Assembly: GCA_963733095.1 (NCBI GenBank)
Contig: CAVTBV010000009.1
Coordinates: 64,001 to 128,000, forward strand
From: Candidatus Bathyarchaeota archaeon
Lineage (GTDB): Archaea; Thermoproteota; Bathyarchaeia; Bathyarchaeales; Bathycorpusculaceae
Length of the DNA: 64,000 bases
Direction of reading: 5' to 3'
The translations under genes were made by a program, and so were the position numbers. Shown here in pieces: positions 42,803 to 58,821 of the stretch; within the stretch, counting starts at the first letter, position 1; the number at the start of each line of letters is the position of its first letter. The notes under the pieces were generated by a model. The model was not told the DNA's origin, searched no databases, and worked only from the letters and a program-made list of their open reading frames with translations.

Positions 42803-42945
42803 AATTCACAACTCCAGACAAGTTACTTAGCGGTTCAAATTACTTATAAGCTAGTGTTGCTGTGCTCCTACAGTCACACAGCTATTTTTCCAAATGGTCC
42901 AATACTCATGCAAGTAAGAATAGTTGTTTAAGTTGGTTTTTGATA

Positions 42946-43380
42946 ATGGCTGCTCCAGATGATATAAAAAATATTCTTGGTTCAAACGAAAAGGTTGAGC
43001 TGTACATTGAAGAAAAAATTTATCATCCTCGAATTAACATTGAATCTGTGATAATTACTAATGAACGGATAATTTTTCGGCATCCTCATGCGCTTGGTTT
43101 GAAGAAGGATTACACCGATTACAGTTACAGAGACATCACAAACGTAACGTTGGACAAAGGAATATTGCGTTCAACCATCAAACTTGCACTTAAACACATG
43201 GAAGGATCGAAGGGAAGCCAGCAAGAAGGAGAAATTCTAGATTTAGGTAACTTGCCAAACGACCTTGCAGAAGAAAGATATGGTATCATCAGAGAAAATA
43301 TTGGCAAATTCCAATCGCCTTTTTCAACTGGTTATGCTAACATTCCAAACGCGGAAGCCGCGGGTTCAAATCCCTCCTAA
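42946..43380 (+). CDS. Bacterial-PH-domain protein
   Basis: ITNERIIF, DY.Y.DI.NV.L.KGIL.S.I; the 3' end runs through a tRNA-like fragment. Confidence 0.8.
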   Translation: MAAPDDIKNILGSNEKVELYIEEKIYHPRINIESVIITNERIIFRHPHALGLKKDYTDYSYRDITNVTLDKGILRSTIKLALKHMEGSKGSQQEGEILDLGNLPNDLAEERYGIIRENIGKFQSPFSTGYANIPNAEAAGSNPS

Positions 43381-43524: not shown

Positions 43525-45219
43525 GTGTGTTTAATGCAAAAGGAAGCAAAATTAAACTTGAACAAGAAAATATCAACAACTCTGCTCATATCAATTCTCT
43601 TAGCAAGCATTATAATTTTTGTGCTCCTTGGACCGGTAGAAATGGTCAAAGCAGACAACCAAAACAATAATTCAAACGGAGCCTCCACCTCTTGGCCAAT
43701 GTTCCATTCGGACCCAACTCATAGTGGTACAGGAACTGGCGGTCCATTACTTAATCCAACAGTACTATGGAAGTACAATACTTTTGCTGATGATTCAGGT
43801 CATGTTTATTCTTCTCCCGCTGTTGAAAATGGAGTCGTTTTCGTAAGCTCTTGGGATTTCAAAATCGTTTCCAAGAGTGTAGTCACAAATTACGGCAACC
43901 TCTATGCATTAAACGCTTCTAACGGCGACAAAATCTGGAACTGCTCAGTCGGACCAGTTACCTATTCTTCTCCTGCAGTTAAAAACGGGATTGTTGTAGT
44001 AGGTTCTTCGAGCGGTAACATTTCGGCAGTGAATGCTACTGATGGTAATCTTCTTTGGGCATACCAAACTGGCAGCAGCATTGAATCTTCTGCTGCAATC
44101 GTCAAAGACATAGTTTACATAGGGTCATTAGACGGCAATGTTTACGCTTTGAATCTTTTAACTGGTGTGAAAGTTTGGAACTCCACTATTGGCGCTGTCT
44201 ATTCCTCTCCTGCAGTTGTTAACAATGTAGTGTACGCTTGTTCTAACAATGGAGATTTCTGCGCTCTGAATGCCACTAATGGTGACCAAATCTGGAATTA
44301 CACCAGTCAAATATATTCCAACCATGGAAATTATCTCTACTCTTCTCCAGCAATCGCCAACGGCATGGTATACATGGGCTCGTATAATAATGACGCCTTT
44401 GCTTTGAACGCCACAAATGGAAAGTTAATTTGGAAGTACGCTACGGGCAGTGAAATTGCTTCATCTCCAGCAGTAATAAAGGGTATAGTTTACATAGGTT
44501 CATATGACGGCAATGTTTACGCTTTAAATGCCACCAACGGAGCAAAAATCTGGAGCATCTATCTCAACCAGATTGGTTGGTCGTCTCCCGCGGTTGCTAA
44601 CAATGTATTGTACATTGGATCAGAAGATGGTAATGTTTACGCAGTAAACGCTTTCAACGGTGCAGAACTTTGGAGTTACGATACTGGCAGTCTTCAACTT
44701 GATTCGTCTCCAGCGGTGGTTAATGGTATCGTCTACATTGGTTCATCGAATGGGTACGTTTACGCTTTTGGCACTCCTACACCTATTGTAACACCACCTC
44801 CAAGCCCAACTCCAATAATGACAGACCCCACTGCGACACCAACACCACCAAATCCAACACCAACGCCTATACCAACGGCTACATCCACTCCTCTCCCAAC
44901 CCCAACCGTAACTCCAATCCCTAACTTTACCGATCAAACATCGGCATCTACTCCTACGCCTTCACCGACCCCGACAACTACCTCAACACCTATTCCTATA
45001 TCCGACCCCACTCCTACTTCGACAGCTGCTACTACTCAGACATCTTCATCAACAGCTACAAACACTTCTACAGTTTCACCTATTCAATCCCACTCGCTCG
45101 CAGGAGTTGAAACGGATATTCTTCCTCATGAAGTCTTCTATTCCATTGCAGCCACAATCATAGCAGCCATTGCAGTCACAACGATAATAATACTCAGAAA
45201 AAAGAAAATAGAGCTTTAA
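43525..45219 (+). CDS. Surface PQQ-like (BamB-type) beta-propeller protein with P/T linker and C-terminal TM anchor
   Basis: WPMFH.D..H.G, repeated SSPAV...VYIGS.DG.VYALNA..G..IW units, PT repeats, TM + RKKK. Confidence 0.92.
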   Translation: MCLMQKEAKLNLNKKISTTLLISILLASIIIFVLLGPVEMVKADNQNNNSNGASTSWPMFHSDPTHSGTGTGGPLLNPTVLWKYNTFADDSGHVYSSPAVENGVVFVSSWDFKIVSKSVVTNYGNLYALNASNGDKIWNCSVGPVTYSSPAVKNGIVVVGSSSGNISAVNATDGNLLWAYQTGSSIESSAAIVKDIVYIGSLDGNVYALNLLTGVKVWNSTIGAVYSSPAVVNNVVYACSNNGDFCALNATNGDQIWNYTSQIYSNHGNYLYSSPAIANGMVYMGSYNNDAFALNATNGKLIWKYATGSEIASSPAVIKGIVYIGSYDGNVYALNATNGAKIWSIYLNQIGWSSPAVANNVLYIGSEDGNVYAVNAFNGAELWSYDTGSLQLDSSPAVVNGIVYIGSSNGYVYAFGTPTPIVTPPPSPTPIMTDPTATPTPPNPTPTPIPTATSTPLPTPTVTPIPNFTDQTSASTPTPSPTPTTTSTPIPISDPTPTSTAATTQTSSSTATNTSTVSPIQSHSLAGVETDILPHEVFYSIAATIIAAIAVTTIIILRKKKIEL

Positions 45220-45220
45220 G

Positions 45221-45274
45221 AAAAAAGAGAAAATGCGGGTGATATATCCACTTTCGACGGGATTCAATTCCAAC
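45221..45274 (+). mobile_element. att-like composite site 1 (motif + degenerate T-arm)
   Basis: AAAAAAGAGAAAATGCGGGTGATATATCCACTTTCGACGGGATTCAATTCC. Confidence 0.7.
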
Positions 45275-45583
45275 TTTGATTGGAAAAAGCTGAGGATTCG
45301 CCCTCGATCCCAAGTTAAGTAAGTTACTCCGACTCCAATTCCGAACTTTCTGCATGCCAAGTTTACTCAATTGTAAGGCCTCAGTCAAAAAATCGAAAAA
45401 TTAAGGTCTTTCTGAAAATCCGTCCAGAAAAAATCCACTTGGGAACAAGCTGCCGGGAATAAAGTAACGCAGGAATTGGTATTCGTCGAATGCCGTAAAT
45501 ACACCTCTGAATAGCCTATCTTTGTTATTCCTTTAAAAAAACTACCCAAATCAAGAATTATGAAAATGCGAATCGGAAAACAT

Positions 45584-45646
45584 AAAAAAAGGGTTTTGGT
45601 TGAAATCTCTTTCAGGGCGCAGGATCAAATCCCTCCCCGCCCGCCA
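45584..45646 (+). mobile_element. att-like composite site 2 (degenerate motif + tRNA 3' end CCCGCCC-G-CCA)
   Basis: AAAAAAAGGGTTTTGGTTGAAATCTCT...GCAGG ATCAAAT CCCTC CCCGCCC G CCA; same spacing and tRNA end as the 54621 site. Confidence 0.65.
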
Positions 45647-45880
45647 CAAGAAAATCTGTATCCGCAGTCACGACAGGAGTACAGCTGAACATTCCCTTTT
45701 TGTGTCTGTCTTTTTCCGTCTTTGTAGTTTCTCTGACTGCCACACTCGGGGCATGTTACCTTTGGTTTGATATAATTACCGTTGAGAACATCCTTTGAGA
45801 TGATTTTTCCACAATGTGGACAATTGAAGACTTTTTGTTACATGCTTGTTCATCCCGTATTTTTTGCCAAGTATGCCCAA

Positions 45881-45944
45881 AGAAAAATGGGGTTTTGCGA
45901 GTGAAACCTCTTCTCTTCCTGGGTTCAAATCCCCCCCCAGTCCA
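45881..45944 (+). mobile_element. att-like composite site 3 (degenerate motif + tRNA-Ala-like 3' end)
   Basis: AAAAATGGGGTTTTGCGAGTG...GGGTTCAAATCCCCCCCCAGTCCA. Confidence 0.65.
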
Positions 45945-46228
45945 CTTCAACATCAATTTTCTGATTCACAGTGTTCTAATAAAATCAAATCCAACATCAC
46001 CCGCAAAAACGTGTTAGTGCGCAGGTGTAAAAGTCTCTAACGCAGCGAATTAAGAGAAAAGAGGGTTTTCTGAGGCTCTGGACTTCATGGAGAAAAGAGC
46101 GAAATGCAGAAACGCTCTTCAACTATGACAAGGTGAATATCATCCAAAGCCTACTCAGCCCCATTTATTTCTCCGCTGTTTCTTTAAACAAAAAAAGGGA
46201 AAGGTGTTTGTTGTTTGGTTACTTTTGT

Positions 46229-48877
46229 TTATGCTCGTTTCTTTATGACTATCAATGCAAGTATTGCCCCGACTATTGCGATTGCAACAATAATTCCTGT
46301 TATTCCGGGCAGTATGTATGTGTCAGCCATTGAATGTGTTGGTTCTTGAGTTGACGCTGGGGTTGCTGCTGCGTCTACTGCAAACGATGTTTCTGCAGAT
46401 GATCCATAATATGAGTTTGAGCCTGCAAAGGTTGCTATGACAGTGTATTTGCCGGTGATATCAGGTGTCCATTGTAGGCTGTAGGCTCCGCTTGCGTCGC
46501 TGACTGTGTTTCCAATACTGCGGTAGTTACCGTTTGAATCGATAACCGCGATGCTGATTGGGACGCCTGTTGTGTTTGTCGGTTTATCTTGCTGCATGTA
46601 CACGTATTCCATCCATAGCTTCATGCTTGCGTCAGATACACATGGCACTCCATTGGGGAATTTTGCTGCTTGCTCTTCTTGTGTTGTTCCTGCAGCGATA
46701 TCGCTGACTGTGCCTCGTATTACTAGGCTTTGGCCTTGAGTAACTGCAGCTAATGGTGCATCAACTGTTAGTTTGCTGGCGCCTTTGCCAACTGAGTAGA
46801 CTTGCATGTCATAGATGTTTAGGTATGTGAAGTATCCGTCTGCAACAATGTCGTACTGGCCAACGTACATGCCTGTGCCCATTCCAGTGAGAGTCCAGAT
46901 TTCTTCGCCTGTGGTGGCATTTAAGCATCTGTATTGTGCGTCTTTGTAGAGTGGTTGGTTTGGTGAATGCTCTGTTGTTCCGACGTAGACTTTTCCGTCA
47001 GCGATGACGTCTATGAATAAGGGGTAGTGGCTATAGACTGTGTTTTCGCCTGAGTATGTACTGTTGCCTTCTCCGCCTCTGCCATAACTCCACAGCAAGT
47101 CACCTGTTGCGTCATTATAGCAGTAGACTATACCGTCGTAACCTGCAGCGTACAGATTACCATACGCACTAAGTGTGTCTCTTCTCAGGGTATCCCATTC
47201 TACTACGGGTGTTTTTGCAGTCCAGAGGTGGTTTCCGTTGTCAAGGCTGAAGCCGTTGAATTCTAGGGTTTCTTTATCTTCTGTGACAAAGGTATTTGCA
47301 ATTGAATCAACTGCTACAAGTACTCTGGTTACGTTGCTGTCGGCTGGTGCATAATACTTTGTCCATAGAACGCTGCCTGCGCTGTTGGGGTCTATTTTTA
47401 CCAAGGTTATATTTGCGCCGGAGCTTTCTGCTCTTGGACCAGCTCCCAAGTTACCTTGGAGGAGGAGTAATTTGTCACCGACAATTACGTCTCTATAGAT
47501 AGTCCAGCCTTGTCCTGTAAGCGATGATACGGATACGTTCCAATCGTACATGCGGGAGTCGGTTGCATTGAAAGATGATGTCGGGTACCAGTTGCCTGCT
47601 CCAATCTGGCCTGCTGATAGTTGAGTATATTTTGATGAGTTCCATTCGCTCAGGTAATACGTGGGGTTTGATGTAGTGCCGAGGTTTGTCAATGAGTAAA
47701 TAAGGTATTCGCCACTCGGACCTGCTGCTGATGCGCCGTTTGCAGAGTTAGCTGCTAAAGTGGCAGATGCGGCTGATCCTGAAGGAACGTTAGTTAGGCT
47801 CATTCCGGTGAGTACGCCTGTTCTAGCATCATATGCTCTCCAGACTGTTCCGAGACCAGTCACTGTGGTTGTTGCTATTAGTAGACCGTTGGGTAATACA
47901 CCATGTTGGTTTCCATCTTCGTAGGCGTACAGGTAGCCGAAGCTTGGTACTATAGATACGCCTGTTGCGGTTGTGTTGATGCGCCAATTTTCTTTGCCTG
48001 TTTGCAGGTCTACTGAAACGTAGTCTCCGCCGCTGCCTGAGTTGCCATATGGTTCTTGATAGAAGAGGTTTCCCTGCATAACGATAGCGTTACTGAAGCG
48101 GGGATTGTATGAGCTGCCTGTGTAATATCCTTCACCTAGGTTTGTGGTTGAAGTCCCGCCGACAACCCCGCCAAATTGCAATGGTTTGGTCCACATAACA
48201 TGTGAAGTCTCAGGTCCTGATCCATCTTTCTGGTATCTACCGTAACCTGAACCACCTGTAGCGGTAGCACCTGTGCGGATGTAGGGTCCATTTAGCCAGT
48301 TGGAGGATATTAAGAACCAGTCCGAGTTTTCACCGTTTATTGGTCTACTCCAGTATTCGCTTGGAAGAGCAGCGCTTGGCGATATACCTTCAGTTTGTTC
48401 TTCCTGCACAGTTAGTTTCGTTACCGCTTGCGCAGGCTGATAGACGTCGTTTTGATAGGGACCGCTCCAGGTGTGTGTTTGTCCAGCATAGTTGAAAGTC
48501 ATGGTATAGGTTCCTACTGTATCAGGGGTAAACGAGTATGATTGTATGCCTGTTGTATCTTGAACTACAGCCCAAGTTTCAGTCTTGCTTGTCCCGTCCG
48601 GTTGAGTAATAGTCAATGTGTAGTCATGTCGACGAACGTCGTTGGTCACCAACGCACCATTTAAGGGTATATCAACCCACATGTAAATGTACACTGTCTG
48701 ACCAATCCCCACAGGATTTGGAGCAGCAGATACATAAGCGTATGATTTAATGTCCCAAGCAGGTGTATGTCCACTAGCAGTAGATAGAGTCGTCAATGGA
48801 ACAGCAATGGATACTACTAGAAACAACGTAATAATTGACAGTGCCTTTTTCGATAATGTATTTTTTTGTAGATTCAT
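46229..48877 (-). CDS. Large secreted PQQ-like beta-propeller protein with Ig-like domains and C-terminal anchor
   Basis: Signal peptide, PNPVGIGQ, YW.RPI, W-containing propeller repeats, IADGKVY...EHS, G.YTV.ATFAGS.SYYGS, TM + KKR. Confidence 0.88.
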   Translation of the reverse strand: MNLQKNTLSKKALSIITLFLVVSIAVPLTTLSTASGHTPAWDIKSYAYVSAAPNPVGIGQTVYIYMWVDIPLNGALVTNDVRRHDYTLTITQPDGTSKTETWAVVQDTTGIQSYSFTPDTVGTYTMTFNYAGQTHTWSGPYQNDVYQPAQAVTKLTVQEEQTEGISPSAALPSEYWSRPINGENSDWFLISSNWLNGPYIRTGATATGGSGYGRYQKDGSGPETSHVMWTKPLQFGGVVGGTSTTNLGEGYYTGSSYNPRFSNAIVMQGNLFYQEPYGNSGSGGDYVSVDLQTGKENWRINTTATGVSIVPSFGYLYAYEDGNQHGVLPNGLLIATTTVTGLGTVWRAYDARTGVLTGMSLTNVPSGSAASATLAANSANGASAAGPSGEYLIYSLTNLGTTSNPTYYLSEWNSSKYTQLSAGQIGAGNWYPTSSFNATDSRMYDWNVSVSSLTGQGWTIYRDVIVGDKLLLLQGNLGAGPRAESSGANITLVKIDPNSAGSVLWTKYYAPADSNVTRVLVAVDSIANTFVTEDKETLEFNGFSLDNGNHLWTAKTPVVEWDTLRRDTLSAYGNLYAAGYDGIVYCYNDATGDLLWSYGRGGEGNSTYSGENTVYSHYPLFIDVIADGKVYVGTTEHSPNQPLYKDAQYRCLNATTGEEIWTLTGMGTGMYVGQYDIVADGYFTYLNIYDMQVYSVGKGASKLTVDAPLAAVTQGQSLVIRGTVSDIAAGTTQEEQAAKFPNGVPCVSDASMKLWMEYVYMQQDKPTNTTGVPISIAVIDSNGNYRSIGNTVSDASGAYSLQWTPDITGKYTVIATFAGSNSYYGSSAETSFAVDAAATPASTQEPTHSMADTYILPGITGIIVAIAIVGAILALIVIKKRA

Positions 48878-48933
48878 TTGTTTTTTTCTCCTTTTGTGGC
48901 TTAATGTTTGTAAATATAACAGTAATAAGGCTG

Positions 48934-48950
48934 GCTCACCTATCGTGAGT
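48934..48950. promoter_or_regulatory. Palindromic operator copy 1 (GCTCAC-N5-GTGAGT)
   Basis: Inverted repeat repeated at 49138; lies in a divergent intergenic region. Confidence 0.65.
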
Positions 48951-49137
48951 ACAAAATTCAGCCATAGTTCCACAAAAAGAGGCAAAGAAGAAAAATATAA
49001 ATCAAAGACAACAACGAATAACGATGCATTAGTGTACGATTGTAGAAATTGTCTTTTTATTTTTGATTTTCTAGCAGACTCATTTTTTTCCTTCTTTTTA
49101 TGAACCTTTAAACATGTAAGAAGCGCTAATAAGCTTC

Positions 49138-49154
49138 GCTCACTTATCGTGAGC
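49138..49154. promoter_or_regulatory. Palindromic operator copy 2 (GCTCAC-N5-GTGAGC)
   Basis: Near-identical to the 48934 copy; both preceded by TAATAAG. Confidence 0.65.
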
Positions 49155-49322
49155 TCGAAAAACCGTTTATTGGCTAATCTTCACCGAGTATTTTGCCAGC
49201 TACCTTTTTGTAACTGGCGTCAAAGAGAGGATGCCAATAAGTCACACAAATCTGTCGTAAGTATAAAATATTAAGTAAACTATACGAGATTGTTAAAGAT
49301 ACACTAATGGTGAATTTACACG

Positions 49323-50015
49323 ATGGACCCTTATGCTTATCAAACATTCCGAGTTATCTATGAAGTTACTTCGGCTATTTTTTGTTTTGTTCTTGTAAGA
49401 TTCATGATTAAACCCTACCAGATCACTAAGGAGAGTCGATACCTTGGACTGCCTCTCGGATTTGGGTTTCTTGGAGCAACCTACGCTTTATCTTCCTTTG
49501 TTTACTTCAAACCATATTTTTTTGGCAGTGGAACAATATATTTTCAACTCGTAGTAAGAACTTTCGCATTTATTTTTCTGTGCGTTACTTATTATTTTTC
49601 AAGGAAAAGTGGCGATAGTAGAAGGCTCTGGAATACTACTTTGGCTTTATTAATTATCGCTTTTGTAGCTTTATTTCTGCTCGTTACTATTCCTAATGTT
49701 GCTCTACCTAGTTATCAGCTTACAAGTACCTTTACCAGATTCTTCAATCTAATTTGCATCGCTTATCTTTGTGCCCACACTCTTAGAAGCCATATAGAAA
49801 AGCCCGATCCAGAAACGCTTTGGATCCCATTTGGTTATTTTCTTCTGGGAATAAGCCAGTATTCACTAATCATTTATTCTATAGACAATAGTATGTCTGC
49901 GTGGTGGGGGGCACTGGCAATTCGTTGGGTAGGTCTAGCCGTGTTTCTTTTTGTCACAATCAAATCTTTTTACGGCAACAAAAAGAGGAGAATAAATGAA
50001 ACAAATCGCACGTAG
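49323..50015 (+). CDS. 7-TM membrane protein (possible sensor)
   Basis: Seven hydrophobic segments; overlaps the downstream wHTH gene. Confidence 0.75.
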   Translation: MDPYAYQTFRVIYEVTSAIFCFVLVRFMIKPYQITKESRYLGLPLGFGFLGATYALSSFVYFKPYFFGSGTIYFQLVVRTFAFIFLCVTYYFSRKSGDSRRLWNTTLALLIIAFVALFLLVTIPNVALPSYQLTSTFTRFFNLICIAYLCAHTLRSHIEKPDPETLWIPFGYFLLGISQYSLIIYSIDNSMSAWWGALAIRWVGLAVFLFVTIKSFYGNKKRRINETNRT

Positions 50016-50274
50016 AGACAGAATGAAAATTTATGGCGACCTTTTGTCAATATTGTACGCCGAAAGTAGAGAAGAAAAAATAGTGTTAACGCATGTTCAA
50101 GTACAGATTAGAGTTCCTTTTGATAGGTTAAAAACTTACATATCAGAACTTAATGATTTAGGCTTAATTGAGGATCAGACTTCGCTTAAGCTTACAGAAA
50201 AAGGTAAACAGTATATCATTGAATACAAGAAAGTTCTTGATTTTATGAAACGCATGGGCGTAGCCTACCGGTAG
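49996..50274 (+). CDS. Winged-helix DNA-binding protein
   Basis: RRDRMKIYGDLL, YI.EL..LGLI, LTEKG; AGGAG RBS. Confidence 0.85.
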   Translation: MKQIARRDRMKIYGDLLSILYAESREEKIVLTHVQVQIRVPFDRLKTYISELNDLGLIEDQTSLKLTEKGKQYIIEYKKVLDFMKRMGVAYR

Positions 50275-50629
50275 ACAATACCAAAATAGTTGAATCAATG
50301 AATGATACTACTACTCTATAACCGATACTTTGAATTTTATGGATTTAGAGGAAGGTACATTGGTTAAGCTCTGCGTATTTATTGGGGAGGTCAGAGTAGA
50401 AAGACCTCACTTACTGATAGGTTTGTTTTTGTGATGGGTTGTTTTAGGATGACAGTATTTGTTCTGCTTTTTGTTCGTCAAAATTGTGTTTAGACAGTAG
50501 CTTGTGCCATTCGAGGTGAGCGCAAAGTAAGTATCGGGTGATTCTTGTAAAACCCCAATTCGTTGGCAAACATAACTCGCTCTTGACTCTTGCCCATGGA
50601 ACATATAAAATGAAGTAAGAGTTAGCATT

Positions 50630-50662
50630 AAAAATGGGAATTGCGGGTGTACACTTCACTAT
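50630..50662 (+). mobile_element. tRNA-less copy of the att-like motif upstream of the integrase
   Basis: AAAAATGGGAATTGCGGGTGTACACTTCACT versus AAAAAAGGGAATATGCGGGTGATATATCTACT at 56718. Confidence 0.55.
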
Positions 50663-50718
50663 TAGTTAGCTTTTGAGATAGTTTGATATACCACACAAAA
50701 CATGTGGAGTGTGGTTGA

Positions 50719-52095
50719 ATGAATTTGAGTGAACAAACGTTCCTTGACTCAGTATCAAACCCAAAAACAAAAAAATGCTACAGATACGGACTAAAAATAT
50801 TCTGCCAATGGTACGGACAAACAGCAGAACAAATCCTTGAACTAAGAAAAGACGACCTAACACAGCGCGTCGGGGAAAACCTGATTGAATACCGAAACCG
50901 AGCATCAAGATTTGAAAAAGAAATAGAAAAATTCCACACATACCTTTCAACAACAAAAAGCATCAACACCGCAAGAGTCCAAACATTAGGAATAAGACAA
51001 CTCTTCAGATACTATGAAATGCCTATGCGCTTTAGAAATGGAAGCAAGATAGCTAAAACCGTCAAAACAACCAAAAACTTTCCCCTAACAATCGAACACG
51101 TACGGAAAATGTTTGACGTAGCAAACCTAAGAGAAAGAGTAATTCTGAGCACCGCTACTGATTTAGGCTTAAGAATAGGCGATTTCATGAACCTCAAAAA
51201 ATCAGACTTACCTTCATTAAATCAAGAATCGCCCATTTCCTTTGAAATAATGACTGAAAAAGAAAACGTTTTAGCTTGTGGATTCTTAAGCGAAGAAACA
51301 GTTGACCTTCTTAAAATCTATCTTCCAACATTAGACCACAAAAAAGATAATCCCTACCTTTTCCCTTCAAACGGAAACAGAAGCATATCAGACGAATGGT
51401 TAAACCGTCTGCTACAGAACTTAGCAAACAAAGCAAAAATAAACTTAAACGGCAAAAGAGTAACCTTTCACTGCTTTAGAAAAATGTTCCTCTCAGCATC
51501 CATTGACAGCGGAATAGGCTTAACAGCTGGTAAAAAATTGTGCGGAAAAACAATAGCCCAATCAGACGACACATACCTAACCGTCGTTAACCTCAAATCA
51601 AAATTCCTACAAATCAAGAAATTCTTAACCATTAAAGAACAGCCAAACCTTGAAATAGAGCAAATTGAACCCTTAAAAAATGCGATAACTAAGCTTCAAA
51701 GCGATTTAACAGAGCAAAAGCTAATTACTTCTGTAATTTCTGAGGCGCAAAACAATAGAATTAAAGACATTGAAAAGAAACTTTTTTCCGTACAGCCTGA
51801 TGTGGAATGGGAGAAATATCTTTCAGAACATCCAGACGAATTTGAACGATTTGAAAAACAACATGAAGAACGTCTGAAATGGGGAAAAGAGCATCCAGAA
51901 GTCGTTAAAAAGCAAACAGAGCAAATTGACAAGAAATTTAGAGAATATGAAAAATGGCGAGAACAACATCCAGAATTAAAAGAACAAGAAGAAAAAACAT
52001 ATGTTGAACATCTTGAAGACCGAATAGTTGAATTAGAAAAAACTCTGCAAGAGCTTGCAGACTTTGTTAGAAAAAGACCAGAAGGAAATACTTGA
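50719..52095 (+). CDS. Tyrosine recombinase/integrase with a long charged C-terminal extension
   Basis: N-terminal T.K.YR..L..F SAM-like domain, GLRIGD (R), YLFPS, FHCFRK (HxxR), DDTY (catalytic Y). Confidence 0.92.
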   Translation: MNLSEQTFLDSVSNPKTKKCYRYGLKIFCQWYGQTAEQILELRKDDLTQRVGENLIEYRNRASRFEKEIEKFHTYLSTTKSINTARVQTLGIRQLFRYYEMPMRFRNGSKIAKTVKTTKNFPLTIEHVRKMFDVANLRERVILSTATDLGLRIGDFMNLKKSDLPSLNQESPISFEIMTEKENVLACGFLSEETVDLLKIYLPTLDHKKDNPYLFPSNGNRSISDEWLNRLLQNLANKAKINLNGKRVTFHCFRKMFLSASIDSGIGLTAGKKLCGKTIAQSDDTYLTVVNLKSKFLQIKKFLTIKEQPNLEIEQIEPLKNAITKLQSDLTEQKLITSVISEAQNNRIKDIEKKLFSVQPDVEWEKYLSEHPDEFERFEKQHEERLKWGKEHPEVVKKQTEQIDKKFREYEKWREQHPELKEQEEKTYVEHLEDRIVELEKTLQELADFVRKRPEGNT

Positions 52096-52133
52096 GTGGA
52101 TTTTAAAAGCAGAAGGAGGAGAATTAATTATTC

Positions 52134-52682
52134 ATGTCAAACCAGTCAAAGCCAAGTAACTCTTGCAAACCAACTAAGAAGCCGCCTCGCCCAATTCCTA
52201 AAAATAGGTTTCCCGAAGGCATTCAATTATGTAAAGACAATATTGCCGACTTCTTAAGTGATGCCCGCAATGTTTTAGCCAACGGTAAACCCTACCATGC
52301 CTATATCTTGTTTGAATTTGCCTTAGAAGAATTTGGTAAAATAATTATGCTAAAAGAAGCAAGAGACGACCCAAACAATAAAACTAATGCAGCGCAAGTT
52401 CCTGAGCATGTTTTTACTAACCATCGGGGTAAATGCGATAAGGCGATTGATGTTTTAGGTACGGATTTAAAAACCCTCTACAATGGTATCTGGGCTAAAG
52501 GTATATGGGCACCAGGCATTTGGGGAGAAAGCGAGGTAGAAGTGGGTCATAACACGCGACTAAAGTGTGCCTTCGTTGATTATCTCAATAACAACTGGAC
52601 TATTGGCGACAACGCAATCACAAAAAGCAACTTGACCAGTTTAATAGAAAAATTGGATGCCCGCACCAAATTGGAGAAATAG
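52134..52682 (+). CDS. AbiV-family (HEPN-like) abortive-infection protein
   Basis: DN..DFL.DA..L..G..YHA..L..FALEEFGK...F.NH..K pattern recalled from the AbiV family; GGAGGAG RBS. Confidence 0.7.
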   Translation: MSNQSKPSNSCKPTKKPPRPIPKNRFPEGIQLCKDNIADFLSDARNVLANGKPYHAYILFEFALEEFGKIIMLKEARDDPNNKTNAAQVPEHVFTNHRGKCDKAIDVLGTDLKTLYNGIWAKGIWAPGIWGESEVEVGHNTRLKCAFVDYLNNNWTIGDNAITKSNLTSLIEKLDARTKLEK

Positions 52683-52697
52683 CCATTAAAGGACTTG

Positions 52698-53070
52698 TCA
52701 ACACAATGCGGGGCTGATATGCGCCCCTCTTTTCTTTTCGTCGTCGGCAAAAAAGCCCCGAACATCAGCCCAACGGGTGACACGCTTAAATGTTGGAAAT
52801 TTGCAGCAAATTTACAACTTTTAAGCGTTTCATTCGGGGCTTTTTTGCAGTAGTAACCAAAAACAACCGTCTGGTGTAGCATCAACAACAAACGGTCGAT
52901 TATCACAATGCGGTTCTTGACTGCGTTGCCCTCACAATGTAGGGCAACATAGGCAAACAAAGGTGCTCTGCGACATTTCCGCACATACGGCAATGTCCAG
53001 AGCACAGCAACCAACCGTTAACCATTGGATAGCGGAACCGTCGGGGCGAACCAACGGTCGCCACGATAAA
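52698..53070 (+). ncRNA. Candidate ~370-400 nt structured non-coding RNA or structured DNA element
   Basis: At least seven stem-loops separated by A/C-rich linkers, G-U pairs on the + strand, no credible ORF. Confidence 0.55.
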
Positions 53071-53274
53071 AGCAAAAATAGTGTTAAGGCTTAATTCTGC
53101 AAACCAAAAGAAGCACGGCAAGAGAATTTAAAAGAATAGACAAGTTCTCATAGCTTAGGTCGTTCGTCGTCGTCTTCACTTGATATAATAACACAAATCT
53201 CGACATGAAACAATGGATAATATGTGTGTAAAATAAGACATAAATTGAGGAAATGGGATAGGGTATTGTGATGG

Positions 53275-53430
53275 TTGAAGCATACTTTGAAAGTCTTATT
53301 GAAAGTAACTACCACTGAGAACGGTTCTCGAATTTGCAGTGTTCCTATGAAGAGATTAAAACAGTTGACTTCTGGTCGTAAGTTGGTTTGGTCTTTGGAA
53401 GGGGAATGGCTTGTTTTGGAGTCGTGTTGA
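53275..53430 (+). CDS. AbrB/MazE/SpoVT-like microprotein 1 (51 aa)
   Basis: Manual translation MKHTLKVLLKVTTTENGSRICSVPMKRLKQLTSGRKLVWSLEGEWLVLESC. Confidence 0.6.
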   Translation: MKHTLKVLLKVTTTENGSRICSVPMKRLKQLTSGRKLVWSLEGEWLVLESC

Positions 53431-53580
53431 TTGAAGGTAGTTTTGAGGATTTCTAAGAAGGGGAGTCAAGGTGGTTTTCATGTTGGCAGTGTTCCTATGA
53501 AAAGGCTGAAGCGGTTGGCTTCTGGTCGTCAACGCTTTTGGAAGCTTGAAGGAGATAGTTTGGTTCTTCAATCTTCTTGA
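53431..53580 (+). CDS. AbrB/MazE/SpoVT-like microprotein 2 (49 aa)
   Basis: Manual translation MKVVLRISKKGSQGGFHVGSVPMKRLKRLASGRQRFWKLEGDSLVLQSS; paralog of the preceding ORF. Confidence 0.6.
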   Translation: MKVVLRISKKGSQGGFHVGSVPMKRLKRLASGRQRFWKLEGDSLVLQSS

Positions 53581-53804
53581 TTCTACCAAAAATATGAAAA
53601 GAAATAAAAAAAAATAGATTTTATACCTTATCTCTCTCCATTTAAACCTATCTCATGGACTCAGAAAAACAAATACTGAAGGATTTCCATTTGAGAAAGT
53701 GGATATGTTTGACATTTTCTCACAACAACCTAAACTGAATTTAGTCAAGAGACTTTGACAAGCATATTTTTTAGGTAGGTTAAACCAGTGGTTAAGTGAT
53801 TGCT

Positions 53805-54551
53805 ATGGGCAAGAAAGCAGTTGCTGTAGGAATAATTCTCGTTATTCTGTCATTATCTTTACCTTTAGCATTTGGGTATTTTGAAACCAATATTATAGAT
53901 ACCTCATGGACTGGCAGTGCTACACAATTTTTGAATAATGCACAACCTTATCCACAATGGAAAGACGAATACACTCTGAATGCTTACACCATAACTCTGT
54001 TTGAAAATGGGACAAGCACTTTTGTTAATGCTACTAATGGAGATAGCTTTTCTTCTTATCTTCTAAATGTAATGACAAGAGCTGACAGTCAGATGAGCTC
54101 CGTGAGTGATGCTTTTGTTAATAATGTAACTCAGAATGATAAGGTAGTTTATTTACGAAGCAGATTGGGCACTAACTTTGCTCAGGCAGGAATTTTTGTT
54201 TGGGATACATATTTTGTATTGGAAGATAACCTGTATCAAGGGAGTTTAAAGGGAACAATATTCATAGAGCATGATTCTGACAATGTACGCACATGGCAGC
54301 ATTGGGCTATACTACTAGGGCAAAGCCCTACACCTAGTCCTACACCTGTTCCAACTCAAAACCCTACACCAACACCAACTTCTCAACCCACAGCTAACCA
54401 AAATAATTCACCTACACAAAACCCAACAGCCAATCCCACTCCAACTCCTACCATTCCAGAGTTTTCTTGGTTTATTATTTTGCCTTTGTTCCTTGCAATA
54501 CTCTCTATTGTTGTCCTAATTAGAAAGAGAAAAGTACCTTTGATAAAGTGA
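53805..54551 (+). CDS. Secreted protein with P/T/Q linker and PEF-CTERM-like sorting signal
   Basis: Signal peptide; C-terminal IPEF + TM + RKRK. Confidence 0.85.
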   Translation: MGKKAVAVGIILVILSLSLPLAFGYFETNIIDTSWTGSATQFLNNAQPYPQWKDEYTLNAYTITLFENGTSTFVNATNGDSFSSYLLNVMTRADSQMSSVSDAFVNNVTQNDKVVYLRSRLGTNFAQAGIFVWDTYFVLEDNLYQGSLKGTIFIEHDSDNVRTWQHWAILLGQSPTPSPTPVPTQNPTPTPTSQPTANQNNSPTQNPTANPTPTPTIPEFSWFIILPLFLAILSIVVLIRKRKVPLIK

Positions 54552-54620
54552 AAGCCTTTTATTTAATAATCACATTAGCAATGTTGGTATATCAATAGCT
54601 TTAGAAATCAAACTAATAAT

Positions 54621-54675
54621 AAAGTGTTCGGGTGATATCTCCACTTGAACGTAGGTTCAAGTCCCACCCCGCCCG
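54621..54675 (+). mobile_element. att-like composite site 4 (motif + tRNA 3' end CCCGCCC-G)
   Basis: TCGGGTGATATCTCCACTTGAAC GTAGG TTCAAGT CCCAC CCCGCCC G. Confidence 0.75.
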
Positions 54676-54823
54676 TTTTGAGTCGAGGGATTATTTTCGT
54701 TTTCTGAATGATAAGACCTTCTCTTCCTACTATACCCCAAGATTTTGAAAGGTCTTGCGTACATAGCAGCATCAAAAAGGATATAAAGAGAGACTGACGA
54801 CCTCAACTCAGGAGATAAACCCG

Positions 54824-55138
54824 ATGCCATTTTGCAATAAATGTGGAAAAGAGATATCTGATGATATGAAATTCTGCCCAAATTGCGGAACGCCCATTGG
54901 AATGGAGGAAGAGAGCTTTTCTGTTTCCTCTGAAGACTTGGTCCAGAAAGTCAAAGAATTGTTTCATGAAGGAAATGTCAGGCGAATAACTATAAAGAGC
55001 TAAGAAGGCAAAACTCTGCTCGACATTCCCGTTACAGTCGGAGTTATAGGAATTGTCCTAGTTCCCTGGCTTGCCGCGATTGGAGCCATAGCGGCTTTAG
55101 CTACGAATTGCACTATAGTGGTTCAAAGGCAGAAATGA
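54824..55138 (+). pseudogene. Zinc-ribbon + DUF4342 protein with an in-frame TAA at 55001
   Basis: FCNKCG...KFCPNCG, LVQKVKELFHEGNVRRI.IK*EGKTLLDIPVTVG...PWLAAIGAIAAL. Confidence 0.85.
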
Positions 55139-55177
55139 GTTAAAAGCAAAAGGTCTTCCACGAATCGGGCGCCATAG

Positions 55178-55279
55178 GATAAGTCAGATTCAAAAATAAT
55201 TATTGTATTTTATACGTTCTGATGATAAGATATTTTCCGGAAGGACCTTCCTCTATGGGGCCCAGATTTTGGAGGCCTT
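55178..55279. repeat. Dispersed ~110-bp element, copy B
   Basis: Homologous to 40185-40293. Confidence 0.65.
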
Positions 55280-55487
55280 GGTGCCGCCTTTTGCTTTATA
55301 ACAGCGTACGTTGCAGGATCCATGGGCATTTTATGCACTTAAACACATACACTTATAAGCTGTGTATGCACTTATGTACTAATGTGAATAAGCGGGGACA
55401 AAACATGACAAACAGAAAAATCGAATACACAAATTGGTTACTCGCTTATTTCAACAATATCTAACCAGCAAAAAGAAGTGACTAAAA

Positions 55488-55631
55488 TTGGGCCGCATCA
55501 ACGTTGACATCTCAGACGACTTAGAAAAACAGCTCAGATTAAAAACCGTAGAGCAATTCGGAGGCAAAAAAGGCGACTTATCCAAAGCGGTCCAAGAAGC
55601 AGTAAAAACATGGGTCGAAATAAACCAATAA
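55488..55631 (+). CDS. 47-aa ribbon-helix-helix protein
   Basis: Manual translation MGRINVDISDDLEKQLRLKTVEQFGGKKGDLSKAVQEAVKTWVEINQ. Confidence 0.8.
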   Translation: MGRINVDISDDLEKQLRLKTVEQFGGKKGDLSKAVQEAVKTWVEINQ

Positions 55632-55792
55632 AGTCGTCCCTCCTCAAACCATCAATAACTATATTATAAGAAGCCTAGGTAAAAGGCCCGGGTAAGCCAG
55701 CTAGCCTGGAACACCTCACATGAGGATTATGGGCAATCTAGCTGCAAAAACCCTTTTTAGAATGTTTTCCAAGCAAACAACGATAATCTCTT

Positions 55793-56017
55793 TTAGCTGT
55801 TACCTTTCGGTACATTATTAGCAAGTTCGCTTTCGCTTCTTAATTGTCGTTTTAGATAAGCAACTACTTCAAAACTTTGATTAATTTGAAGCGCAACAAT
55901 AGAAACCAATTCCCACCCATCTAAACCATATTTATTCAACAACTCTTCTTGTGTTTTGACACCGGCATCCAGGATTCCTTTCACCAAAGCTATTGAGACA
56001 TACTCCCATTTTGTCAT
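55793..56017 (-). CDS. DUF4177-family protein
   Basis: KWEY...LN.YG.DGWELVS...YLKR. Confidence 0.8.
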   Translation of the reverse strand: MTKWEYVSIALVKGILDAGVKTQEELLNKYGLDGWELVSIVALQINQSFEVVAYLKRQLRSESELANNVPKGNS

Positions 56018-56717
56018 GTTTGAACCTCTAACAACATTATTTTTCTCTAGAACTGAATTAACCAAGTAGTATTTTTCTTTTGAGGTTTATTTAGTTGAGA
56101 TACAGAAGACGTCAAAAACCCCTAAAAAGCGGGTCGGATGGAATTAAGAGACTTTGGCGCAACCAATTTTTGGAAAGAAAATAAAAACCCCTGCAGCAAC
56201 TACTTATCGAGAACGAAGAAACCAAGAACCCTGAAGACACACGGACCAAAATACATATTCCTTTTGAAAAATATTCTATCATGGTAAACAATAAAAGAAG
56301 TGTATAACAAGATGGAAATCATGAAAAAATCGATAAACGTCACAAATGGAGAAGAACCCCCTAACCCTAAACCAAACCCTAACCCTCAGCCAAATCCAAT
56401 CCCAAATCCAATTTAGTAAGAGCTTTTGCTTCATCTATGAATCCTATGAATCTTAAAACCTGAAGGATGTAAGCGTCATTGCCCTCACCAAATCCGGGCT
56501 ACCTTCCTTTAACTGTAATTTACTGCTGAACGAGTTTAGCAGCATAGACTTATAGCAGAGGAATTGTGCTGACTTAGTAGACGCAGGCATAGCATTTTTG
56601 GTTGTCGCGCGTAACTCGGCAGTGATAGGGAATCCCGCGGGGTATGGACGTAGACGCACTATAGTAGTCCACGAAGAACACCACGATTAATATCATTAAC
56701 GTGAAAAGATTACAATT

Positions 56718-56780
56718 AAAAAAAGGGAATATGCGGGTGATATATCTACTTTGCGAGGGGTTCAAATCCCGCCCGGTCCA
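56718..56780 (+). mobile_element. att-like composite site 5 (motif + tRNA-Ala 3' end)
   Basis: ATGCGGGTGATATATCTACTTTGCG AGGGG TTCAAAT CCCGC CCGGTCC A; CCGGTCC-A carries the U70 typical of tRNA-Ala. Confidence 0.78.
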
Positions 56781-56972
56781 TAAAGCGATCCAAACCCTGC
56801 AGAGTTCAAAACCTATTGCGGATTTATACCGTTTGAGATGTGGGACTGAGGCTTAGGACCACGCGGCAATTTCAATATTACTCTTCGTATTATGCGATGA
56901 TTAAAAAAAGAAATAGGGTGTAGGCGTAGTACCTTTGCAGGTTGCCCTCCCTTGTGCTTCAGATAAGCCAAT

Positions 56973-58743: not shown

Positions 58744-58821
58744 GGGCCGGTCGTCTAGCCTGGTTAGGACGTTGGCTTTACGAGCCAAAGGTCGCCGGTC
58801 CGAGTCCGGCTCGGCCCACCA
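58744..58821 (+). tRNA. tRNA-Val(TAC), CCA encoded, no intron
   Basis: GGGCCGG/TCGGCCC acceptor, TTGGC-TTTACGA-GCCAA anticodon arm, GCCGG-TCCGAGT-CCGGC T-arm, ACCA. Confidence 0.93.

Follow-up and report, generated by a model that had tools for sequence, protein, structure and literature searches.

Bathyarchaeia are abundant, mostly uncultured archaea, and little is known about how they gain genes. The stretch analysed here, the window, is 64,000 nt long and corresponds to positions 64001–128000 of contig C9 in a 2.84-Mb Bathyarchaeia genome of 16 contigs (G000). Positions without a contig name are those of the window, and contigs named without a genome belong to G000. The window is variable between about 40 and 58.7 kb, and the right edge of this region is an intact tRNA-Val(TAC) gene (58744–58821, + strand). 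The region carries five sites in which a conserved arm precedes a piece of a tRNA gene or a T-loop-like sequence, as well as the gene of a XerA-like tyrosine recombinase (50719–52095), called IntB here. An interpretation made from the letters alone (the sequence-only reading) had located five same-strand sites and proposed one att-like motif joined to different tRNA 3′ ends by one integrase family; all five are present as located, on the + strand. In the relative G002, about 4 kb (4.1 kb) of other genes without any site lie between a conserved gene at 38.5–39.9 kb and the tRNA-Val gene, while G012 is only patchily similar to the window island. Gain or loss of single cassettes at the window's own sites could not be read from the comparison with G012 and G002.

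A site opens with a head made of an A-run and a G-run, followed after 3–4 nt by TG-CGGGTG-AYATCTCC-AYT. The part TG-CGGGTG-AYATCTCC is an imperfect palindrome, from which a spacer of 6–8 nt leads to the tRNA part. The latter runs from the T-stem end and T-loop through the 3′ T-stem strand to the acceptor strand and discriminator, often with CCA, and is followed by 2–10 nt of the tRNA gene's own 3′ flank. A scan of the window with the strong motif GCGGGTGATATMTCYACTT, allowing up to 3 mismatches, gave matches at 45235, 54628 and 56733, where 0.01 were expected and none of 100 shuffles reached three. The distance from GTG to the T-loop is 21 nt in four window sites and 20 nt in the one at 45879, just as had been counted before. 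A wider survey by regular expression, in which 45 of 77 sites could be parsed, gave 21 nt in 28, 20 nt in 14 and another distance in 3. Related subfamilies keep the layout and the T-loop distance with other palindromes, such as GGCGATATCGCC, and the palindrome halves co-vary between them (GGCGAT/ATCGCC, GGAGAT/ATCTCC, GGTGAT/ATCACC). The fixed distance suggests that the palindrome is a protein-binding part of the arm, and we infer rather than observe which protein binds it. A generic regular expression for palindrome plus T-arm was too strict and found nothing useful.

The first site (45216–45285, + strand; profile E 6e-9; noted earlier at 45221) begins 2 nt past the stop codon of a PQQ-propeller gene (43525–45219). 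It consists of an A-run head, the palindrome GCGGGTGATATATCC, the spacer and the T-loop-like TTCAATTCC alone, with no acceptor strand, and is therefore tRNA-less, not tRNA-joined as had been supposed. The second (45584–45648, +) has a weak, degenerate arm and is recognised only by its tRNA part, the last 22 nt of tRNA-Arg(CCT) including CCA, which match the gene on contig C14 at 22/22. Its T-loop has A in place of T54, a variant that also occurs at C15 30570. The third (45879–45953, +) has a GCGAGTG-variant arm and is a clear but diverged copy (profile E 1.2e-10). Its tRNA part extends from the T-arm to the 3′ end of tRNA-Ala(TGC), agrees with the gene on C16 at 24/25 (one extra C) and is followed by 9 nt of 3′ flank. 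Logan metagenome contigs of four runs were also compared; the best run holds 0.32 of the sampled words, and window parts without contig cover carry no meaning. A contig of run X2 with an intact tRNA-Ala matches only 45921–45953 of the third site.

The fifth site (56718–56782, +; profile E 4e-11) is complete, with head, palindrome, spacer and the T-arm-to-3′-end of tRNA-Ala(CGC); it fits the T-stem and acceptor predicted for a tRNA-Ala(CGC) gene cut by the end of contig C7. The copy at 45881 had been read as a degenerate form of the one at 56718, but the two derive from different alanine isoacceptors, TGC and CGC. The fourth site (54608; noted earlier at 54621) is a chimera, matching the tRNA-Leu(TAA) T-arm at 17/17 and then continuing into an Arg(CCT)-type acceptor strand. 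Thus, one arm is joined to different tRNA 3′ ends, as proposed. Comparison with the genome's tRNA set, a check that had been suggested with the proposal, assigns the window fragments to at least three to four different tRNAs and not to one. Identity begins at G51–53/T54, close to the T-loop where the sequence-only reading had put it. Genome-wide, the fragment types include Arg-CCT, Ala-TGC, Ala-CGC, Leu (Leu-TAG among them), Cys, Ser-CGA and Pro-GGG, with identity from the T-stem or T-loop to 2–10 nt past the tRNA end. The only intact tRNA genes of the window are tRNA-Met and tRNA-Val, neither of them cognate to a fragment, again in agreement with the earlier observation. Elsewhere in the genome, intact genes exist for the Arg-CCT, Ala-TGC, Leu, Cys and Ser fragments.

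The chimeric site is the right boundary of a mobile element. The IntB element spans 50644–54634 (about 4 kb). It interrupts the palindrome of a resident site at a core of 6 bp, CGGGTG, which precedes the T-loop by about 21 nt. Its left junction, attL (50623–50649, +), consists of the resident head and the core (50644–50649), followed by element DNA. The body (50650–54628, +) has a second copy at C13 14213–17707. The right junction, attR (54629–54675, +), starts with the core (54629–54634) and continues with the tail, the spacer, the Leu-TAA-type T-arm and the Arg-CCT-type acceptor strand. The 21 nt before the attR core (54608–54628) are the element's own arm and not the usual A-run head. Since the element sits at CGGGTG, the tRNA-less copy at 50623–50649, whose GTG ends 70 nt before the IntB ATG at 50719, is the left junction and site 54608 the right one. 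This removes two parts of the sequence-only reading, namely that the window integrase uses the T-loop as its overlap and that the copy beside it is an attI-like site. Besides IntB, the element encodes an AbiV-type HEPN protein (52134–52682), a 251-aa protein with a C-terminal membrane anchor (53796–54551) and small open reading frames. Just after 54675 there is an 11-nt likeness to the stop region of the second integrase group described below; it was not backed by tblastn and is not counted.

IntB aligns with positions 15–255 of 263 of the XerA model NF040815 at 70 bits, with a cut-off of 220, and carries an extra C-terminal region of 170 aa; XerA structures (PDB 5hxy) match it at E 1e-8. A 78%-identical copy lies on C13, and 29 related loci were found in other genomes. 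When 19 upstream regions of IntB genes were aligned, likeness began at the head or core and there was none further left; 13 of 18 evaluable regions have an A-run directly before the core. The far end of the elements has a different, A/T-rich arm ending in CTT, then CGGGTG and the usual tail, with a T-arm in 6 loci. The 6-nt core, CGGGTG or CGGGAG, is identical at both ends in 6 of the 7 elements for which both ends were found. Rebuilding attP for the window gives AAGTGT-T-CGGGTG-T-ACACTT, an inverted repeat AAGTGT/ACACTT around an 8-nt centre, and of the 6 attP sites that were rebuilt, 3–4 show such a repeat clearly. A contig of run X3 matches 54629–54665 behind a normal A-rich head and breaks off exactly at 54629, a hint that it represents the uninterrupted target of the IntB element. 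From run X4, a contig joins 54639 to 50641, that is right end to left end. In this way the suggested search for circular junctions did return an end-to-end joint, which may come from a circle or from a tandem copy. IntB (E≤1e-30) is present in 9 of 201 sampled Bathyarchaeia genomes and in 6 of the 10 with at least nine motif copies, an association with Fisher p 2e-7 among genomes that are kin and not independent.

The arm is by no means confined to the window. The profile built from clear copies gave 52 matches at E≤1 in the genome; they form clusters whose members share one orientation, and we estimate about 35–50 copies in same-strand arrays. An 18-nt pattern with up to 2 mismatches matches 23 times in G000, the reversed control not once. 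The same pattern is present in 80 of the 201 genomes with up to 36 copies each, so that the profile scan of this and related genomes, proposed together with the sequence-only reading, bore out the abundance of the motif. Its distribution is patchy even within the genus (5 of 11 genomes), as expected of a mobile element. Arrays start at intact tRNA genes of the same orientation, namely Leu(TAG) at C9 224497, Leu(CAG) at C13 29088, Cys at C10 9925 and, adjoining an intact gene of the second integrase group, Leu(TAA) at C14 10364. Displaced 3′ tRNA fragments recur distally as direct repeats of such genes: Cys on C10 with 14520, Leu-TAG on C9 with 229786 and 231089, Ser-CGA on C1 with 89089, and Ser on C6 with 55391. 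The sites bound small cargo units of 0.3–5 kb in the same orientation, and the claimed arrays of small units are thus real. Comparison of all unit flanks with each other showed them to be mostly unrelated; shared flanks occur only in the IntB element, in a C7 duplicate and in a tRNA-less class of sites treated below. No exact match of the motif was found in IMG/VR, which holds one relative of IntB only, and a viral origin was rejected on these grounds.

Who owns the arm was approached through the other integrases of the genome, in which 20 matches to the tyrosine recombinase family, 17 of them above cut-off, were found. One group, named IntT here, combines a XerA-like core with a zinc ribbon at the N-terminus and a conserved C-terminus whose last residues are KLFRKRK; its members are diverse, with best matches in relatives only 34–50% identical. 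IntT genes lie convergent with tRNA-Ala(TGC), Phe, Pro(GGG, a broken gene) and Leu(TAA), and IntT C-termini or their remnants lie convergent 34–102 nt past intact tRNA-Pro, Phe, Ala-TGC, Leu-TAG and Cys. C-terminal IntT remnants also lie 41–57 nt past the motif sites C14 23511 (E 2e-20) and C9 260142 (E 5e-10). Two further integrases, at C13 458036–459166 with tRNA-Val(GAC) and at C6 121471–122847 with tRNA-Arg(TCG), are upstream of and codirectional with the tRNA, unlike the convergent IntT genes.

A complete island of 40 kb (C16 18640–58695) extends between an intact IntT gene and the motif arm, which form its two ends. The 426-aa IntT ends 31 nt from the 9-nt repeat CCTCCGAAC. The other copy follows the arm, 40 kb away, and these are the only two places where it occurs in the 179-kb contig. 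The flanks of the island abut in at least 12 relatives, with 8–16 nt between the matches, and seven empty sites could be aligned, revealing the uninterrupted target. A precise empty site has been demonstrated for this island alone, and its core is not a tRNA. Judging from its ends and empty sites, this arm marks where an IntT island ends distally, and the layout of the island further identifies the T-arm position of the other copies as the crossover core. The cargo of the island comprises a type I restriction system and four surface proteins of the PQQ/Ig kind. In other units the cargo includes oxidoreductase subunits, a pyridoxal-phosphate decarboxylase, a methyltransferase, an alcohol dehydrogenase, a TrmB regulator and more PQQ/Ig proteins. 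Proteins of 730–940 aa with a PQQ β-propeller and Ig-like domains recur as cargo at 46229–48985 in the window and at loci L067 (5329–8040) and L083 (four genes), mostly encoded on the strand opposite to the sites. A check for an SSV-type arrangement found the IntT and IntB genes whole beside their junctions and no long frame running from the motif in 17 sites.

The right end of C16 carries tRNA-Ala(TGC) (178287–178361) and a cut IntT gene, and at the right end of C9 an Ala fragment (267305) lies 66 nt from the contig end. The two ends probably belong together, which would make the eight-site array C9 256911–267303 the island of tRNA-Ala(TGC).

Recombination within the T-arm has left its own traces. 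On C14, tRNA-Leu(TAA) with its IntT gene is followed downstream by two same-strand sites, 23507 and 28040, with 4.5 kb between them. In the first, a Leu-TAA-type loop base leads into the 3′ end of tRNA-Cys and flanking sequence of the Cys gene itself, while the second has a Cys-type spacer and loop and then the Leu-TAA 3′ end with CCA. They are reciprocal Cys × Leu-TAA chimeras, in which one tRNA gives way to the other somewhere from position 59 to 65; the assignment of 28040 draws on about 8 bases to one side of the switch and on 3 bases together with CCA to the other. Entry of a Cys-type element into a Leu-TAA-type site should yield such a pair of products, and the two sites give direct support, at the level of sequence, for recombination between non-cognate tRNA-derived sites within the T-arm. 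Five further copies of G000 (C13 28781 and 19693, C7 85278, C9 265535, C3 3606) are tRNA-less, with a common breakpoint inside the T-loop after TTCGA and common sequence beyond it. Their shared non-tRNA part reads GCAAC, about 25 nt and then GGTGTAGCTTCTATATCC, and a sixth such right part lies without an arm at C7 78075. This class could go back to a single junction that was later duplicated, or it could represent the attP of an additional kind of element. In contigs of related organisms the same tails are joined to other tRNA parts. The C14 and 54608 chimeras and the shared breakpoints support entry into non-cognate tRNAs and old scars by way of the T-arm. To this extent the idea that several tRNAs or old scars can be entered has stood, but the exchange at the centre of the loop has not, because the mapped switch points fall at positions 59–69, which belong to the loop's 3′ half and the 3′ strand of the T-stem.

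We consider it probable that the motif is the distal arm of IntT islands sitting beside tRNA scars, and that the IntB element uses the palindrome as its target. According to this model, the motif would be the distal attachment arm (P arm) of an IntT-made family of integrative islands of Bathyarchaeia. The free element would have the order head, palindrome, spacer of 6–8 nt, core, about 40–100 nt, and an opposite-strand IntT gene pointing to the core, where the core would be the T-arm-to-3′-end of a tRNA gene or, occasionally, another short sequence. Integration would leave an intact tRNA beside IntT and, at the far end of the island, the arm beside the displaced 3′ piece; IntT itself, rather than a helper, presumably makes the crossover in the T-arm. 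Repeated integration, also into old scars and non-cognate tRNA-derived sites, with crossover inside the T-arm and decay of the integrase genes, would produce same-strand arrays of 0.3–5-kb cargo units. These would be divided by sites of arm plus tRNA piece of mixed identity, and the five window sites would be such an array. A second, smaller element, that of IntB, would then target the palindrome and has probably split one site into the tRNA-less copy and site 54608.

Several observations weigh against this model. The arm was found on only a single complete IntT island, whose core is not a tRNA; the 9-nt repeat of this island taken alone is only marginally significant (about 0.04 expected), so that the empty sites carry the weight. 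The window array has neither a proximal cognate tRNA nor an IntT gene and lies upstream of the non-cognate tRNA-Val. The Leu-type assignment of C14 23507 depends on one base. The metagenome contigs come from relatives at ≥90% likeness and not from the source strain, and the X4 joint has two readings, as noted. In the genome G162, 26 motif copies occur without IntB, and the arrays looked at there had no integrase of any kind. Finally, the complete genome G014 has IntT beside tRNA-Ala and tRNA-Leu, yet no motif copy, and no distal repeat was found within 20 kb of either tRNA. From this genome it follows that the arm belongs to a subfamily of IntT and not to all IntT elements.

Sites of G162, which belongs to another genus, were seen on its contigs C43, C1 and C3 (loci L057–L059) at intervals of 0.5–3 kb; in one example, 7.5 kb hold six on one strand. 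Their T-arm is degenerate (ATACAAATCC), a common right part of 30 nt takes the place of the tRNA end, and no integrase lies in the stretches examined.

These degenerate arrays bear on an integron-like explanation, in which the 60-bp site is an attC-like docking site, IntB moves units in trans at CGGGTG and the tRNA pieces are passengers left from an ancestral capture. We hold it unlikely. IntB does cut within the most conserved 16–18 nt of the site, most units lack an integrase, and the tail, spacer and T-arm are inherited together as a block while the heads vary. The enrichment of IntB in high-copy genomes points the same way, as do the G162 arrays with a degenerate T-arm and no tRNA end. Nevertheless, movement at CGGGTG is seen for the IntB element only, whose own arms differ from the resident ones, and 4 of the 10 high-copy genomes have no IntB at E≤1e-30. 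Moreover, the C16 island and the C14 chimeras cross over at the core or T-arm, not at CGGGTG. The site has no folded attC-like structure, and on the integron-integrase model TIGR02249, with a cut-off of 265, IntB reaches 18 bits and IntT 43–48 bits. The analogy with integrons drawn in the sequence-only reading accordingly fails on both integrase type and site structure.

In its strict form that reading assumed one integrase with the 7-nt T-loop as overlap, able to enter any tRNA, and the copy beside it as its attI-like home. The existence of T-arm chimeras, the break of the five tRNA-less copies after TTCGA and the start of tRNA identity at the T-loop all agree with it. The integrase beside that copy inserts at CGGGTG, however, and the mapped switches avoid the loop centre. 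The diversity of the IntT genes is at odds with a single integrase, and an element with a non-cognate right arm would destroy the tRNA entered; we find this form improbable.

It is very hard to believe that the sites are RNA features, whether as a promoter/terminator module, as a small RNA or as the 3′ parts of split tRNAs that share a leader. A TTAAGAAAAA-like box about 22 nt before GTG, the odd introns of many tRNAs in the genome and the covariation of the palindrome halves would fit, but intact cognate tRNAs are present, many copies are degenerate, and there is no conserved frame after GTG in 17 sites. Rfam finds only the two tRNAs in the window and nothing at the sites, the tRNA model run over the whole genome has no match at them, and the consensus fold of 35 aligned copies is empty (RNAalifold). 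Split tRNA genes were rejected because intact genes are present and the tRNA model found no orphan 5′ pieces pairing with the sites. A general promoter or terminator was discarded as the head is limited to these elements (59 loose matches, the true ones all within the family). A coding role or integrase N-terminus was likewise dismissed, since the frames from GTG of the 17 sites differ and stop early.

We therefore return to the reading of an IntT arm with a second element in it and rate the system as a form of tRNA-island accretion in which the arm is conserved and phased and a further element homes into it; it is neither an integron nor an RNA gene, and the sequence-only reading was partly right. 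Accretion and cis-mobilizable elements of streptococci reportedly form tandem arrays through an att site flanking a resident, often integrase-less, element. Here, in contrast, an unrelated-looking second recombinase uses a palindrome inside the att arm of the first family, and the host is an archaeon. The rebuilt attP of IntB resembles Xer-type sites in being a short inverted repeat around a 6–8-bp centre, as in dif and lox sites. Unlike XerA, IntB scores far below the cut-off, has 170 additional C-terminal residues, resides on a 4-kb mobile element and targets the arm of another element and not a chromosomal dif site.

The tRNA-gene islands covered by the Islander account (PMC4383910) share with the present ones an integrase beside the regenerated tRNA, a displaced 3′ fragment at the far end, identity from inside the tRNA past its 3′ end and empty sites in relatives. 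In distinction from the islands as presented there, an arm of 45–60 bp with a phased palindrome is common here to at least seven tRNA cores and one non-tRNA core; it is conserved across an archaeal class, and its arrays mix fragments of different tRNAs. Tycheposons of Prochlorococcus, as outlined in bioRxiv 10.1101/2020.12.28.424599, are similar in having cargo elements at tRNAs, partial tRNAs between integrations, scattered degenerate integrases and adaptive or defence cargo; differing from that outline, one array here holds pieces of several tRNAs on a common arm. A precedent for relaxed partner choice is the integrase of pTN3 from Thermococcus nautili, an archaeal, tRNA-targeting element, which according to PMC5495485 and PMC8371274 also recombines non-att sequences. 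The activity reported there is like homologous recombination on identical stretches of at least 104 bp, whereas the switch seen here lies in a 5–6-nt stretch of two T-arms. Integrons, which have been reported in Archaea too (bioRxiv 10.1101/2022.02.06.479319), similarly show same-orientation arrays of short units, a recurring site and many units without recombinase; unlike in integrons, the site here is conserved in sequence and unfolded, and there is no attI/Pc arrangement. A literature search, with supplementary texts outside its reach, found no paper describing the arm or an integrase element inside it.

Other repeats were seen at and around the sites. A second repeat family, with TTTTATATGTTCTGATGATAAG, a short palindrome GGAAGG..CCTTCC and then GGCCCAGATTTTGGAGGCCTTGG, occurs in the window (54690–54760 and 55215–55300), on C10 (10170–10260 and 14660–14700) and at several places in C15 30800–32250. 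Several small cargo units begin with this repeat, which could be a promoter or leader, or a miniature element. An imperfect palindrome GGATTCGCTTAA..TTAAACGCATCC, about 45 nt past some tRNA ends or fragments, is common to C13 14120–14165, C9 39930–39975 and the region downstream of tRNA-Arg(CCG) on C1. Within the open reading frame 42862–43380, positions 43347–43374 contain 27 nt that repeat exactly the part of tRNA-Ala(CGC) reaching from its anticodon loop to its T-loop. This stretch forms the 3′ end of a multi-copy gene, of which 42930–43345 recurs in many genomes of the genus, and may serve a further family of elements for attachment. Several tRNAs of G000 have non-canonical introns, and tRNA-Leu(TAA) at C14 10364–10488, with an intron in the D region, was missed by ARAGORN. 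That program called 33 tRNAs without and 42 with introns, at least one of them a false call with a 2.8-kb intron.

A bolder extension, which we regard as tentative and somewhat doubtful, is gene capture by two recombinases, with IntT seeding docking arms and IntB and its kin inserting, excising and shuffling integrase-less cargo at the palindrome. If true, this would amount to a functional analogue of the integron built from tRNA-island attachment sites. Relaxed recombination in the T-arm would let such a capture system spread from tRNA to tRNA, and the shuffled cargo would include surface PQQ/Ig proteins, defence genes and metabolic genes.

For the class as a whole, the arm is a simple sequence marker for island ends in the 80 of 201 sampled genomes that carry it, and it offers two testable recombination reactions with short, defined substrates. 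The system also exemplifies a family of mobile elements that homes into an attachment arm belonging to a different family, and its T-arm chimeras bear on how tRNA-targeting elements change their targets. Section 13 of a study on Bathyarchaeia (PMC11697101) describes very many PQQ-domain (PF13360) genes in Bathy-6 genomes as probably lateral and gives no mechanism there. PF13360 genes are recurrent cargo of the arm-bounded islands, and these islands may explain their abundance in Bathy-6.

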